Of a stretch of DNA of 5,607 nt, positions 1,294 to 5,607 are shown piece by piece. The position numbers and the translations under genes are program-made. Each line of letters opens with the position of its first letter. Positions within the stretch are counted from its first letter, which is position 1. This stretch comes from a virus (lineage: Duplodnaviria; Heunggongvirae; Uroviricota; Caudoviricetes). The stretch lies in IMG/VR virus record IMGVR_UViG_2706794683_000008; one strand, given 5' to 3'. The notes under the pieces were generated by a model. The model was not told where the DNA came from and did not search any database. It worked only from the letters and a program-made list of their open reading frames with translations.

Positions 1294-1440
1294 TCAATAA
1301 ATCCCATCATTGCGATCAACCTCATCCTTAACCATTGATGCGAGCAGTTCTTCCAGTTTCTGCGCTGACAGCTTTACCTGGTGATCTTCAGCATCTTCCC
1401 GGGCTATTGTGGTTCGCGCAGTGGCTGATTTTGCTGACAT
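1294..1440 (-). CDS. Hypothetical small protein (48 aa), weak call
   Basis: ATG at 1440..1438 to TGA at 1296..1294; hydrophilic, helix-like translation MSAKSATARTTIAREDAEDHQVKLSAQKLEELLASMVKDEVDRNDGIY. No clear Shine-Dalgarno; could also be a fragment of a degraded gene. Confidence 0.2.
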   Translation of the reverse strand: MSAKSATARTTIAREDAEDHQVKLSAQKLEELLASMVKDEVDRNDGIY

Positions 1441-1528
1441 CACCACAGGGGGCAGACGGACCATTGAACCATGGCCTCCGGAACAAATAAGGGCAAAAAT
1501 AACAACCACTATCGAAAGCTCACAAACT

Positions 1529-1672
1529 AACCGCAGCACGTTCCTGCATACGACGTGTCTGCGGCATAATCCCAATGATTACTCCCTGACAGGATTTGCA
1601 GGCCACTCAATATCAGGTGCAGTTGATGTATCAACACGATTCAACAATACCCGATATTTATTCCATGCCTCC
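1529..1672. repeat. Direct repeat copy A (~143 bp): tfa 3' end plus downstream hairpin
   Basis: Aligns by eye with 2799..2941 at roughly 85-90% identity; includes an imperfect hairpin at 1531..1564. Confidence 0.8.
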
Positions 1673-1812
1673 AGCAACGATCTTTCTTCCTCCGTTGCGA
1701 TTTCCAGATCTACAGCATCCTGCAGTGGCGCAATATACTCACTAAATTCCTGGATGTAGAACTGTGTGGTGACGGTCTTCCAGCCATTCGGCTCCTGCTG
1801 TATCGAAGCATA
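1579..1812 (-). pseudogene. Orphan 3' fragment of a tail fibre assembly (Tfa-family) gene, 77 codons plus stop
   Basis: Minus-strand translation ...[40 protein letters not shown] parallels the C-termini of the two intact tfa genes in this window (e.g. ...[35 protein letters not shown]). Bounded upstream by an in-frame stop at 1813..1815; no 5' part present. Confidence 0.6.
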
Positions 1813-1916
1813 CTAGGCTATTTCAATATCGCTATGCTGCGGCAGCATTTAACCCCTTGTAATTCATCGCCATAATTGATTTAATTCACAAATAAAACTA
1901 TAACATGGTGAAATCA

Positions 1917-2793
1917 ATGAAAACAAACACAGATGATGGGGCTAAAATTTACACACCACTTACCCTAAAGCTTTATGACTGGTGGGTTTTGGGAGTATCA
2001 AATCGGCTTGCATGGGGATGTCCTACAAAGGAACACCTTCTTCCACACTTTCTGGAACATTTAGGTAACAACCATCTGGATATTGGTGTTGGAACTGGGT
2101 TTTACCTTACTCACGTACCTGAGAGTAGTCTGATATCTTTAATGGATTTGAACGAAGCTAGCCTGAACGCGGCATCTACAAGGGCTGGGGAATCAAAAAT
2201 TAAACATAAAATTAGCCATGATGTTTTTGAACCTTATCCCGCGGCGTTACATGGTCAATTTGATTCCATTTCCATGTTTTACCTTCTTCACTGCCTGCCT
2301 GGAAATATATCTACAAAAAGCTGTGTAATACGCAATGCGGCGCAGGCCTTAACTGANNNNNNNNNNNNNNNNNNNNNNNNNNNNNNNNNNNNNNNNNNNN
2401 NNNNNNNNNNNNNNNNNNNNNNNNNNNNNNNNNNNNNNNNNNNNNNNNNNNNNNNNNNNNNNNNNNNNNNNNNNNNNNNNNNNNNNNNNNNNNNNNNNNN
2501 NNNNNNNNNNNNNNNNNNNNNNNNNNNNNNNNNNNNNNNNNNNNNNNNNNNNNNNNNNNNNNNNNNNNNNNNNNNNNGATGGAACTCTATACGGAGCCAC
2601 AATTCTTGGCGATGGAGTTGTGCACAATAGCTTCGGTCAAAAACTGATGCGCATTTACAATCAGAAAGGCATCTTTTCAAACACAAAAGATTCCGAAGAA
2701 GGCTTAACACATATACTCTCAGAGCATTTCGAGAATGTTAAAACCAGGGTTCAAGGTACTGTAGTAATGTTTTCCGCTTCAGGGAAAAAATAG
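1917..2793 (+). CDS. Class I SAM-dependent methyltransferase (Rossmann fold), interrupted by an N-run; substrate unknown
   Basis: ATG at 1917 with GGTGA 5 nt upstream (alternative ATG at 1905 lacks one). Motif I LDIGVGTG, acidic post-I residue (LMDLNE), motif II-like FDSISMFYLLHCLP, motif III-like DGTLYGATILG immediately after the gap. TAG stop at 2791..2793. It may be the e14 ymfD-type methyltransferase, but I cannot verify that from memory. Frame before the gap (codons from 1917) differs from the frame after it (codons from 2578). Confidence 0.7.
2357..2577. other. N-run (221 nt): masked or unsequenced, inside the methyltransferase gene
   Basis: Run of n characters; length is not a multiple of 3 and the coding frame differs on the two sides. 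Confidence 0.95.
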
Positions 2794-2800
2794 CATCCAA

Positions 2801-2833
2801 CCGCAGCACGTTCTTGCTTAAGACGTGCTGCGG
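2801..2833. terminator. Hairpin (11-bp perfect stem, 11-nt loop) between the convergent methyltransferase and tfa-fragment stops; possible terminator
   Basis: CCGCAGCACGT (2801..2811) pairs with ACGTGCTGCGG (2823..2833). No U-run directly after it on the plus strand; on the minus strand a T-run follows about 9 nt later. Imperfect copy at 1531..1564. Confidence 0.35.
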
Positions 2834-2847
2834 CATAATCCCAATGA

Positions 2848-2931
2848 TTACTCCCTGACAGGGTTCGTAGGCCACTCAATATCAGGTGCAGTTGATGTAT
2901 CAACACGGTTCAGCAACACCCGATACTTTTT
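2848..2931 (-). pseudogene. Orphan 3' fragment of a Tfa-family gene (27 codons plus stop), fused in frame to the invertase remnant
   Basis: Minus-strand translation [27 protein letters not shown]; TAG at 2932..2934 sits where copy A has a Trp codon (EAWNKYR versus EA*KKYR). Confidence 0.55.
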
Positions 2932-2940
2932 CTAGGCTTC

Positions 2941-3174
2941 CACCACCAGCACGACAAGATGCCGCATACAGTGCCCCAGTCAGTCCAGTTTTCAGACAAC
3001 CAGTGCGTCACCTTTTTGAAGGCGCTTTAAAGCACGTTTTAATCCAGGTCGGCCTGTCCTTGTTCCGCTTAATTTATCTTCAAATATTTGTTCATATCCT
3101 GCACAAACAAGAGCGTTTCGTTGCAGGTCTGTATTCTGGTCATTTGTTGATACCCTTACATAGCCAATCAGCAC
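2941..3174 (-). pseudogene. pin: Serine DNA invertase (Pin/Gin/Hin/Cin family) pseudogene: N-terminal catalytic region only
   Basis: GTG at 3174..3172 with GGGAGA 6 nt upstream. Translation (V)LIGYVRVSTNDQNTDLQRNALVCAGYEQIFEDKLSGTRTGRPGLKRALKRLQKGDALVV has the catalytic-Ser motif. In-frame TGA at 2992..2994 (where Trp is expected) and 2980..2982 (where Arg is expected), then degraded sequence, then fusion to the tfa fragment. The C-terminal DNA-binding domain is absent. Confidence 0.8.
3021..3081. promoter_or_regulatory. Candidate recombinational enhancer (two Fis-like sites) inside the invertase remnant
   Basis: GGCGCTTTAAAGCAC (3021..3035) and GCTTAATTTATCTTC (3067..3081): each 15 bp with G...C ends and AT-rich centre, centres 46 bp apart, 90-150 bp into the invertase coding sequence. 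Placement matches what I recall for Hin/Gin enhancers; the Fis motif is degenerate. Confidence 0.3.
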
Positions 3175-3228
3175 GCTGAATCTCCCGTCCAAAAGCACAA
3201 ATCATGCCATGCAGGCCAGAAACCGCCA

Positions 3229-3254
3229 TTATCTAAAACCTCGGTTTACGAGAA
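3229..3254. other. 26-bp crossover site for a Gin/Pin/Hin-type invertase (gix/pix-like), left boundary of the invertible segment
   Basis: TTATCTAAAACC TC GGTTTACGAGAA; its reverse complement TTCTCGTAAACCGAGGTTTTAGATAA closely matches Mu gix as I recall it (TTCCTGTAAACCGAGGTTTTGGATAA). Lies 55 bp from the invertase start, and the tail-fibre frame opens inside it. Confidence 0.8.
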
Positions 3255-4163
3255 CTCGGCACAAGCGGGGAGAAAATACCGTTACTCAGTACAGCGAATA
3301 CCTGGACTAATCGACAAACATTCAGCGGTGGCCTTTCTGGTGAACTATCCGGCAATGCTTCTACAGCTGCAAAATTAAAAACTGCCAGGAAAATAAGCAA
3401 TGTGGCTTTTGATGGTTCCTCCGATATCACATTAAAAGCAAGTCATGTTGGTGCGTTTGCCTTAGGGAAAACAGGAAGCACCGTTGCGAATGATAAAGCA
3501 GTTGGATGGAACTGGAGTAGCGGAGCCTATAACGCAACTATTAGTGGTGCATCAACGTTAATTATTCATTTTTATATGGGAGAAGGAAGTTGTCCTGCAG
3601 CTCAGTTTCGGATTAATTATAAAAATGGCGGTATTTTTTATCGTTCAGCCCGTGATGGTTATGGTTTTGAAGCCGACTGGTCCGAATTTTACACCACCAG
3701 AAAACCTTCAGCAGGAGATGTTGGTGCACTGCCGTTATCTGGTGGTCAACTGAATGGTGCACTGGGTATCGGAACATCCAGTGCTCTTGGCGGTAATTCG
3801 ATTGTATTGGGTGATAATGACACGGGCTTTAAACAAAAAGGCGATGGTAATCTGGATGTTTATGCTAATAACGTCCATGTTATGCGCTTTGTCTCCGGAA
3901 GCATTCAAAGTAATAAAACCATAAATATTACGGGACGTGTTAATCCCTCGGATTACGGTAACTTTGATTCCCGCTATGTGAGAGATGTCAGACTTGGCAC
4001 ACGAGTTGTTTAGACCATGAAGAAAGGCGTGATGTATGAAAAATCAGGCCATGTAATCACGGGGCTTGGTATTATCGGTGAAGTCGATGGTGATGATCCG
4101 GCAGTATTCAGACCAATACAAAAGTTAATTAACGGAACATGGTATAACGTATCGCAGGTATAA
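3237..4163 (+). pseudogene. Silent, promoterless tail-fibre variable C-terminal cassette with an in-frame amber codon
   Basis: Frame is open from 3237, directly after a TAA inside the crossover site, with no start or ribosome-binding site. Tail-fibre-like translation (...TFSGGLSGELSGNASTAAKLKTARKISNVAFDGSSDITLKA...). TAG at 4011..4013 interrupts a conserved C-terminal region; the same frame continues ...[47 protein letters not shown] to 4163, paralleling the expressed copy (...[18 protein letters not shown]). Confidence 0.7.
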
Positions 4164-4165
4164 TC

Positions 4166-4699
4166 ATGCAGCATTTAAAAAACATTGTCGCAGGTAATCC
4201 AAAAACCGTTGAACAATACCAGCTAACAAAGAATTTTGATGTTATCTGGTTATGGTCCGAAGATGGAAAAAATTGGCATGAGGAATTAAAAAACTTTCAG
4301 GAGGATACAATAAAACTGGCTTACACAGTTGAGGGAATAATTATTGCTATAGACAAGGATGTATCAGCAATTAATCCAGAAGGTTTAAGTGTCGTTGAGT
4401 TGCCTGATATTACAGCAAATCGCCGGGCTGATATTTCGGGCAACTGGATGTTCAAAGATGGTGCGGTGATAAAGCGAACTTATACCGAGGAAGAGCAAAG
4501 GCAACAAGCGGAAAATGAAAAGCAGAGCCTGCTGCAGCTCGTCAGGGATAAAACCCAGCTGTGGGACTCTCAGCTACAGCTGGGCATCATTTCCGATGAG
4601 AATAAACAAAAATTAACCGAGTGGATGCTCTATGCGCAGAAGGTTGAATCCACAGACACCTCCAGCCTGCCAGTAACGTTTCCCGAACAACCAGAATGA
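4166..4699 (+). CDS. tfa: Tail fibre assembly protein (Tfa family), partner of the silent cassette
   Basis: ATG 2 nt after the cassette stop; 177 aa; N-terminus [22 protein letters not shown]... closely parallels the other tfa here; typical Tfa C-terminus. Confidence 0.85.
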
Positions 4700-4702
4700 G
4701 AG

Positions 4703-4730
4703 AAGGCCCGCTATCGGGCCTTAATTTTTA
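4703..4730. terminator. Hairpin terminator between the two convergent tfa genes
   Basis: AAGGCCCG (4703..4710), loop ctat, CGGGCCTT (4715..4722), followed by AATTTTTA on the plus strand; sits between the stops at 4697..4699 and 4728..4730. Confidence 0.5.
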
Positions 4731-5255
4731 TTCAGGCTTTTGTGGCCATTCAGGATTTGCCGTATCCACACGGCTGACCAGAACACTGTAGCGTTCCCAT
4801 GCTTCCAGTCGTGTGCGTTCCTCGTCTGTTGCCATATTCAGCCTGACAGCTCGTTCCAGCGGCTGGATGACTGATTCAGCTTCGGAAAGCAATGCGGCCT
4901 TTTGTGATTCGGCCTGTTGTTGCAGTTCCTGTTCTGTATATTCCCTCTTTACTACTTTACCATCCAGAAACATCCATTTTCCGTTATTGTCTGCGTGACG
5001 ATTTGCCGTAATATCAGGAACTTCAACTATGCTTAGCCCTTCAGGATTAATAGTTGAAACGTCTTTACTGACAGCAACGATGATGTTGTTCTCATCGTAA
5101 GCAATTTTTATGGTGTCTGGCTGAAAATTCTTTTGTTCCTCATACCAGTTTTTGCCATCTTCGCAAAAGAGCCATACCACGCCCGCTTTTTTAGTTAGCT
5201 GGTATTGTTCCGGTGTTTTCGGATTCCCGGCCTTAATATTTTTCAGGTGCATCAT
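4728..5255 (-). CDS. tfa: Tail fibre assembly protein (Tfa family), partner of the expressed tail fibre
   Basis: ATG at 5255..5253, 1 nt after the tail-fibre TAA, with GGGGAG upstream; translation [22 protein letters not shown]...[13 protein letters not shown]. The track ORF beginning at 5291 is an upstream in-frame extension. Confidence 0.85.
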
Positions 5256-5256
5256 C

Positions 5257-5607
5257 TTAAACACTCCCCACGTTGTACCATATTCCCCCAATCAATTTCT
5301 GAATTGGCCTTCTGGCAACAGTGTCGACAATATCATCCGCATTGCTGTTAATTGCGGCTGTTAAAACATAACCTGACGCATCGCCAAAGCCGTAGTCGCG
5401 CCATACGTTTTTATATTCAATGCTGCCAAGACGAATATCCCGAACGACATGATTATGCAGCCATGTGCTTAACCAGTTGTTTTCCCACACTGAACCATAA
5501 ATATCGCCACTAGACGCAACTTGCGCACCACTTCCCAGCGCAAATTGAGGTAGCCTGAGTTTAACGGACACTCCTTCCTGAAATAGAATGGCATCAGAAG
5601 GAGCTAA
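5257..5607 (-). CDS. Tail fibre protein, C-terminal part (5' end beyond the window); the copy in expression orientation
   Basis: Minus-strand frame is open from the window edge ([12 protein letters not shown]...) to TAA at 5259..5257; C-terminus ...[18 protein letters not shown] parallels the silent cassette. Confidence 0.8.

Follow-up and report, generated by a model that had tools for sequence, protein, structure and literature searches.

What happens to a prophage tail-fibre switch when the gene for its invertase has been broken off and joined, without a change of reading frame, to the end of a tail-fibre assembly gene? We addressed this question in a lambdoid prophage that occupies the ompW site of E. 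coli. Its right end makes up a stretch of 5,607 nucleotides (the window) whose closest match is strain TUM10008 at 99.3% identity. Homologous loci used for comparison carry handles such as L001 where they need to be told apart. The features of the window, in coordinate order, are as follows.

1-137: remnant of the 3′ end of ompW
between the ompW remnant and the tfa-like remnants: ash/Rha genes
1294-1850, minus strand: two older tfa-like remnants
1905-2793, plus strand: class I SAM methyltransferase gene
2795-2847, minus strand: region 3′ of tfa with a hairpin, as read from the sequence
2848-3174, minus strand: invertase stub plus tfa end, the feature under study
2848-2942, minus strand: orphan 3′ end of a lambda-type tfa, its last 31 codons and the stop codon TAA (2848-2850)
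2939-2945, minus strand: junction patch
2943-3174, minus strand (read from 3174 to 2943): 5′ stub of 77 codons of a Gin/Pin-type serine DNA invertase
3090-3152, minus strand: putative recombinational enhancer within the stub, assigned by homology and geometry
3229-3254: 26-bp pix/gix-type site, TTATCTAAAACC-TC-GGTTTACGAGAA, with its central dinucleotide at 3241-3242, the left boundary of the invertible segment
3243-5607: invertible tail-fibre segment, running off the window, assigned from open reading frames and Pfam matches to gp37_C and Caudo_TAP
3243-4163, plus strand: silent tail-fibre C-terminal cassette, with a TAG at 4011-4013
4166-4699, plus strand: tfa
4728-5255, minus strand: second tfa
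5257-5607, minus strand: start of the expressed cassette

An invertase stub with stop codons

The feature under study runs exactly from the start codon of the invertase, an annotated GTG at 3174-3172, to the stop codon of tfa, and its minus-strand translation from that GTG opens with LIGYVRVSTNDQ, followed by 52 protein letters not shown here. Nucleotide matches in E. coli genomes cover an invertase part (95% identity over 277 nt, E = 2e-120) and a tfa part (97.9% over 96 nt, E = 5e-38). Pfam analysis of the translation with its stops repaired finds Resolvase at residues 3-83 (profile positions 2-91 of 145, E = 7e-22) and Caudo_TAP at residues 79-105 (profile positions 104-130 of 131, E = 4e-12). 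Alignments and Pfam matches together bear out what a sequence-only reading of the window had proposed, that the 3′ two-thirds of the invertase are gone and the 5′ third has been joined in frame to a tfa 3′ end.

Two TGA codons and one TAG interrupt the frame. The first TGA (2992-2994) stands in place of a conserved Trp, encoded by TGG in Mu gin, the P2-like pin of L003, pinE (O157, L007) and the invertase of strain EC958. The second (2980-2982) replaces the first Arg of the catalytic LDRLGR motif, encoded by CGA in pinE and by CGC or CGG in Mu gin, L003 pin and the EC958 invertase. Comparison with these four intact invertases confirms that both TGA codons lie at conserved positions, as the sequence-only reading had claimed; the TAG (2932-2934), which falls in the tfa part, was absent from its list. 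The second Arg of the motif has become His (GRS to GHC) and the active-site Ser (VST) is still present; we take the catalytic roles of the LDRLGR arginines to be those of R68 and R71 in gamma-delta resolvase. The catalytic domain is incomplete, with everything beyond Resolvase profile position 91 physically absent, and the HTH_7 DNA-binding domain, which the intact EC958 paralogue has, is missing from the stub, where tfa sequence follows codon 77. Judged by this sequence, the stub encodes no functional recombinase. PGAP flags both halves of the fusion as partial genes.

The tfa part is likewise a fragment. Between 2945 and 2780 it agrees at 164 of 166 positions with L005 and L006, in which a 585-bp tfa is intact, over the 3′ end of that gene and the sequence beyond it. 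This agreement excludes the possibility that 2848-2942 is not derived from tfa. The intact homologue has 194 aa, and the fragment has no start codon, no full-length Caudo_TAP domain in an open frame and a TAG inside.

An illegitimate join with imperfect microhomology

Ungapped alignment of the window with both pinE and tfa, carrying out the comparison with intact pin/gin and tfa genes that had been suggested for locating the breakpoint and any microhomology, places the breakpoint between 2943, the last invertase-specific base, and 2942, the first tfa-specific base. This falls inside the interval of about 2938-2946 in which the frame had been estimated to pass into the Tfa C terminus. Across the junction patch (TGSWGGA, 2945-2939) the two parents share five of seven bases, at most three of them contiguous, an imperfect microhomology whose register leaves the frame intact. 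This register accounts for the in-frame join, which carries no functional weight, since every copy has at least one stop and one join in three would keep the frame by chance.

Such a join could also have been made by the invertase itself, through an aberrant site-specific deletion at a quasi-pix site in tfa. Cin and Gin, in the work of Iida, reportedly use quasi-sites at low frequency, and the join does fall in the neighbourhood of the invertase's own gene; however, neither parent resembles AAACC-NN-GGTTT at the breakpoint, where the join is a GGTGG/GGA patch. A scan for pix-like motifs that allowed two mismatches returned matches at 2733/2734, 3022 and 3229 in this region and none near 2943, with other chance matches in the window at 255, 1169 and 4544. 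As no pix-like motif lies near 2943, we rejected this origin, which we regard as very improbable. With at most three contiguous shared bases, a patch matching at five of seven positions and no resemblance to pix, the join is illegitimate rather than site-specific.

On the invertase side of the breakpoint the sequence has a composite history. From 3253 to about 3013 it is Gin-like, 91-95% identical to the alleles of Mu, D108, SfMu, P88 and L003, whereas from about 3013 to 2943 it fits Gin-like alleles poorly and is about 90% identical to a pinE-type allele, which makes the stub a mosaic. The sequence-only reading had described the frame as becoming degraded here. That description holds in so far as the stretch also has two nonsense and a few missense changes, but its divergence is not random decay and reflects mainly the pinE-type allele.

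Nested stops across three integration sites

The junction is present at a query coverage of at least 80% in 535 of 5,426 complete E. coli genomes, and occurs in prophages at three chromosomal sites, ompW (the window, L002 and L009-L012), potB (L001) and attλ (L008). We read it base by base in eight copies that represent the three integration sites and come from independent assemblies. All eight have the same join, the TGA at the catalytic Arg and the GHC sequence. Seven have the TGA at the conserved Trp, with L008 keeping TGG. The TAG in the tfa tail is polymorphic, present in some copies and replaced in L001 and L008 by the TGG of intact tfa. This nesting of stops across sites and assemblies indicates a decay series and not sequencing error, in which the stub acquired first the TGA at the catalytic Arg, then the TGA at the conserved Trp and then the TAG in the tfa tail.

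The sequence-only reading had allowed that the stops might be sequencing errors. Errors of sequencing or assembly in an intact gene, or recoding of the stops in a functional invertase, are possible a priori, and some RefSeq records do annotate the first 60 codons as a 'recombinase family protein' without a pseudogene flag. The recurrence of the TGA codons in eight and seven of the eight copies, across independent assemblies, excludes such errors; moreover, the gene physically lacks its catalytic domain past profile position 91 and all of its HTH domain, and we give an intact or recoded invertase practically no chance.

The junction was found in none of 50,697 records of sequenced phages, in which matches end at or before window position 2938. 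A 45-nt junction scan of species-representative genomes returned one 2.5-kb contig alone and gave no support outside E. coli. This contig (L017, JAEWTL010000008.1, 2.5 kb) is binned in a 'Bacillota bacterium' MAG, contains the exact E. coli invertase-tfa junction 45-mer and is probably E. coli DNA that was mis-binned or contaminates the MAG.

In strain 1218KP (L014, 4000-4110) the stub has been cut further by an IS26/Tn3/repA block in the chromosome. What remains is the pix site and roughly 110 bp from the start of the gene, the match reaching window position ~3065. We considered this copy as an independent truncation and rejected it as an uninformative secondary event in one strain.

A switch cassette grafted onto a lambda-type tail fibre

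Two relatives carry the corresponding region with no invertase. In L005 (a prophage at potB) and L006 (a prophage by ompT) the order is stf, an intact tfa, the methyltransferase gene and a tfa remnant, an arrangement that is plausibly the ancestral allele. L001 occupies the same potB site as L005, and the two align collinearly as far as the junction and once more within stf; in the interval L005 has 2.0 kb, comprising the 5′ part of tfa and the 3′ part of stf, and L001 has 3.7 kb, comprising the invertase stub, pix, Sv-tfa, tfa′-Sv′, pix and part of stf. This swap indicates that a lambda-type stf-tfa module acquired an invertible cassette. A Gin/Pin-type cassette (pix - Sv - tfa / tfa′ - Sv′ - pix - invertase) replaced the distal part of the module, one end of the exchange lying inside stf and the other being the illegitimate join of invertase codon 77/78 to the last 31 codons of the resident tfa. 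The event may have been a deletion inside one (composite) prophage or a direct exchange between two elements. A search of the 5,426 genomes with a reconstructed ancestor, consisting of the stub and its pinE continuation, found no intact Gin-like/pinE-like mosaic, full-length matches reaching only 81-82%. The scar itself is an ordinary prophage recombination scar.

The surrounding DNA records further exchanges at this prophage end. The region 3′ of the tfa end contains a hairpin with an 11-bp stem (CCGCAGCACGT...ACGTGCTGCGG), and the same region is found at the intact tfa locus and at the second tfa remnant (1521-1578). A direct repeat (1529-1673 and 2799-2942, 89.7% identical) flanks the SAM-methyltransferase gene, both copies consisting of a tfa 3′ end and the same downstream hairpin. 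Because prophages at potB, ompT and ompW all have the order tfa end, methyltransferase, tfa, the methyltransferase looks like a moron cassette that moves between tfa ends. Upstream of it, on the minus strand of 1204-1850, lie at least two more remnants of tail-fibre-assembly type, one of DUF4376 type that is interrupted by a stop and one at 1579-1850 that represents the C-terminal half of a tfa, and these stacked orphan tfa ends suggest repeated module replacement. The Rha-family gene and the methyltransferase gene are each partly hidden by a run of N (926-1096 and 2357-2577). On the minus strand at 2738-2875, overlapping both the methyltransferase 3′ end and the tfa tail, RefSeq places a 45-aa 'hypothetical protein' (WP_001309429.1), probably a spurious call. 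A scan of 2700-3320 for promoters and terminators returned the pix palindrome itself and nothing else.

The orphan segment still inverts

The segment is bounded by two inverted, dyad-symmetric 26-bp sites with matching central dinucleotides. The partner of the site in the window lies outside it, within stf, as relatives L001, L002 and L009-L012 show, and has been seen with TC/GA centres in L001, L002, L008 and L009. Between the sites are alternative tail-fibre C-terminal exons in opposed orientation, each with its own tfa. The TAG at 4011-4013 cuts the silent plus-strand cassette 50 codons before its end; the corresponding arm of L001, 98-100% identical, has CAG at this position, which identifies the TAG as a nonsense mutation in the currently unexpressed copy. 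The arm beside the stub (window 3223-4823) matches the stf-fused arm of L001 (12625-11025), taken as its reverse complement, at 98-100% identity, against only 73-82% for the partner arm, which starts at about 4823, so that arms have been shuffled between lineages as well as flipped.

The 3.08-kb segment goes on flipping in ST131 relatives, as distinct from the genome that the window comes from, with the exchange falling exactly on the central dinucleotides of its two sites. We inverted the junction of EC958 (L009) in silico at the central dinucleotides of both sites and searched with 320 nt at an identity of at least 99%. The flipped junction is present in 152 genomes and the unflipped junction in 237, and the flipped matches listed are 100% identical to the query. 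Orientation alternates among like-named ST131 isolates, with 4/0 differing from 4/1-1 and 4/4, U12A from U15A, and AZ161/AZ153 from AZ162/AZ146, among others. When 3,083 bp of strain 4/1-1 are inverted in silico at the TC/GA centres, the result matches strain 4/0 over 12,320 bp with 0 differences; all three stops are present in the 4/0 and 4/1-1 copies compared, and either orientation leaves stf with an intact open reading frame, of 2826 or 2907 bp, and an alternative C terminus. A preprint has demonstrated by PCR reversible tail-fibre inversions in a BP-4795-like prophage of ST131 (10.1101/2022.05.07.487787).

One assembly holds both states, unflipped in the chromosome CP015085 and flipped in the alternate contig CP015087, which is the signature of a mixed culture. 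The latter (L018, NZ_CP015087.1, 32.7 kb) is filed as 'extrachromosomal' and is not a plasmid; it is a low-quality, frameshift-rich alternate contig that covers the chromosomal rluB-trp-ompW-prophage region with the segment flipped.

Could the two orientations arise by RecA-dependent homologous recombination between inverted repeats? Arms have clearly been exchanged between lineages, and in some relatives long inverted repeats connect them (1,325 bp at 85% in L001), but the ST131 arms are dissimilar, with 41 of 160 positions identical just inside the sites, and the identical core of the two sites is 12 bp only. Strains 4/0 and 4/1-1 differ, furthermore, by an exact exchange in this core and by nothing else over 12.3 kb. 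A 12-bp core between unrelated arms makes homologous recombination unlikely, and we hold this explanation to be improbable; both orientations are found with the exchange at the site centres, and the recombination is site-specific. The ST131 copy of the prophage is defective, an IS interrupting lom, and other copies are deleted, so that switching there may lack phenotypic consequence.

A candidate invertase in trans and a putative enhancer in the stub

The gene adjoining the segment is the dead stub, leaving no functional cognate invertase beside it, and the catalyst would most likely be supplied in trans by an invertase of another prophage. An intact invertase of 190 aa (WP_000904922.1; Resolvase and HTH_7) is present at 100% identity in EC958, JJ1886, 4/0 and 4/1-1, and occurs in hundreds of other genomes. 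It is the nearest intact invertase to the orphan segment in ST131, at a distance of ~485 kb, and adjoins aroA in a P2/P88-like prophage equipped with an invertible segment of its own; it is 78% identical to the Gin-like protein of L003. The sites of its own segment have TT/AA centres and the orphan sites TC/GA; since the two orphan sites match each other, this difference should not matter. That Gin, Cin, Pin and Hin can act on one another's sites is a classical observation from the literature of the 1980s. We infer that the aroA-side invertase is the best candidate catalyst in ST131. The preprint on ST131 located invertase genes only in two other prophages (10.1101/2022.05.07.487787).

In strain 4/0 (NZ_CP023849.1) the aroA-side invertase gene lies at 957,834-958,406 and in 4/1-1 (NZ_CP023844.1) at 1,002,379-1,002,951. 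Compared with 4/1-1 and other ST131 genomes, 4/0 has the gene on the opposite strand and ~45 kb off, a hint that this isolate has undergone a larger rearrangement.

The locus retains cis-acting DNA of possible use to such an enzyme, namely the pix site, its partner within stf and the first ~230 bp of the invertase gene, the portion in which gin and hin have their Fis-dependent enhancer. Window 3172-3083 is identical to Mu gin at 89 of 90 positions, and within it are two Fis-like 15-mers, at 3152-3138 (TATCAACAAATGACC) and 3104-3090 (GTGCAGGATATGAAC), with centres 48 bp apart and the proximal one 96 bp from the pix centre; their register is presumably that of hin, to which we set it by homology. 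Known enhancers of this type span 65 bp, with a Fis site at each end and ~100 bp from the nearest recombination site, and wild-type Din invertases require a Fis-bound enhancer in cis (PMC3798978). By this likeness, 3090-3152 is a putative enhancer that would keep the orphan segment a competent substrate.

The stub might instead be neutral junk, its first 232 nt kept through an accident of where the join fell while the segment goes on flipping. The breakpoint is indeed a single historical event inherited by all copies, and IS26 has cut the stub further in one strain, although that truncation, ending at window ~3065, spares both Fis-like sites. Junction-bearing copies are polymorphic at 2 sites of 3172-3083 and at 4 of 3082-2943, so that the former stretch is no less variable, and these numbers are too few for a test of purifying selection. 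The cis requirement of Din invertases for a Fis-bound enhancer (PMC3798978) speaks against neutrality, as does the location in the stub of the sole enhancer-homologous sequence identified. We judge neutrality rather unlikely. As a tentative possibility, we propose that the stub persists because its first ~110 bp serve in cis as the enhancer of an orphan host-range switch, and that the invertase of an unrelated P2/P88-like prophage sets the tail-fibre choice of the lambdoid prophage in pandemic ST131 and other E. coli. If true, one prophage would depend in nature on another, with a pseudogene maintained for its regulatory role.

Comparison with known inversion systems

The explanation as a whole, in which a cassette exchange would have left the scar, the stub decayed and the segment still inverts with a catalyst supplied in trans and an enhancer in the stub, appears probable to us. 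Continued switching means that orientation differences are to be expected between otherwise identical clinical isolates, such as ST131 4/0 and 4/1-1, and these should not be taken for assembly errors or for phylogenetic signal. It also calls for caution in annotation, as the 60-codon 'recombinase family protein' at this locus is no enzyme and its DNA may still act as an enhancer.

The locus resembles the G segment and Gin of phage Mu (also D108 and SfMu) in its 26-bp site, nearly identical to gix, in its opposed Sv-tfa cassettes, in an invertase gene that lies just outside the segment and reads away from it, and in a stub 91-94% identical to Mu gin over the first ~270 nt. It departs from Mu in that only 77 codons of the invertase gene remain, interrupted by stops and joined to a tfa tail, in that the Stf of its lambdoid host prophage begins with a long N-terminal domain of lambda type, and in that inversion would be driven from elsewhere. 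The P segment and PinE of e14 (K-12, O157) belong to the same family of chromosomal prophage switches, and the last ~70 nt of the stub (3013-2943) are of pinE type (90%), but in e14 the invertase is intact and the sites, with TT/AA at their centres, depart from the present ones at 6 of 26 positions. Pin, according to Plasterk and van de Putte, is said to act in trans on Mu G. The Fis sites of hin, likewise two, are 48 bp apart. The Salmonella Hin/H segment has its enhancer towards the 5′ end of the invertase coding sequence, at ~100 bp from the closer recombination site and with two Fis sites (PMC3798978), and the stub has the same geometry; unlike the present segment, the H segment carries hin inside it, and Hin flips a promoter and not tail-fibre exons.

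The object is a degenerate member of this well-known family and not a new kind of system. What it adds is a dated module exchange, in which a Mu/e14-type cassette came to lie on a lambda-type side tail fibre, with an exact joint and nested decay. The pinQ, pinR and pinH genes of K-12 are also remnants of Din-family switches in decaying lambdoid prophages, by stf/tfa, and at these loci either the segment has been lost or a full-length gene has been kept. By contrast, the gene at the present locus is dead and the segment is complete and still switching, a modest addition from sequenced isolates in the form of an invertible segment that has outlived its recombinase.
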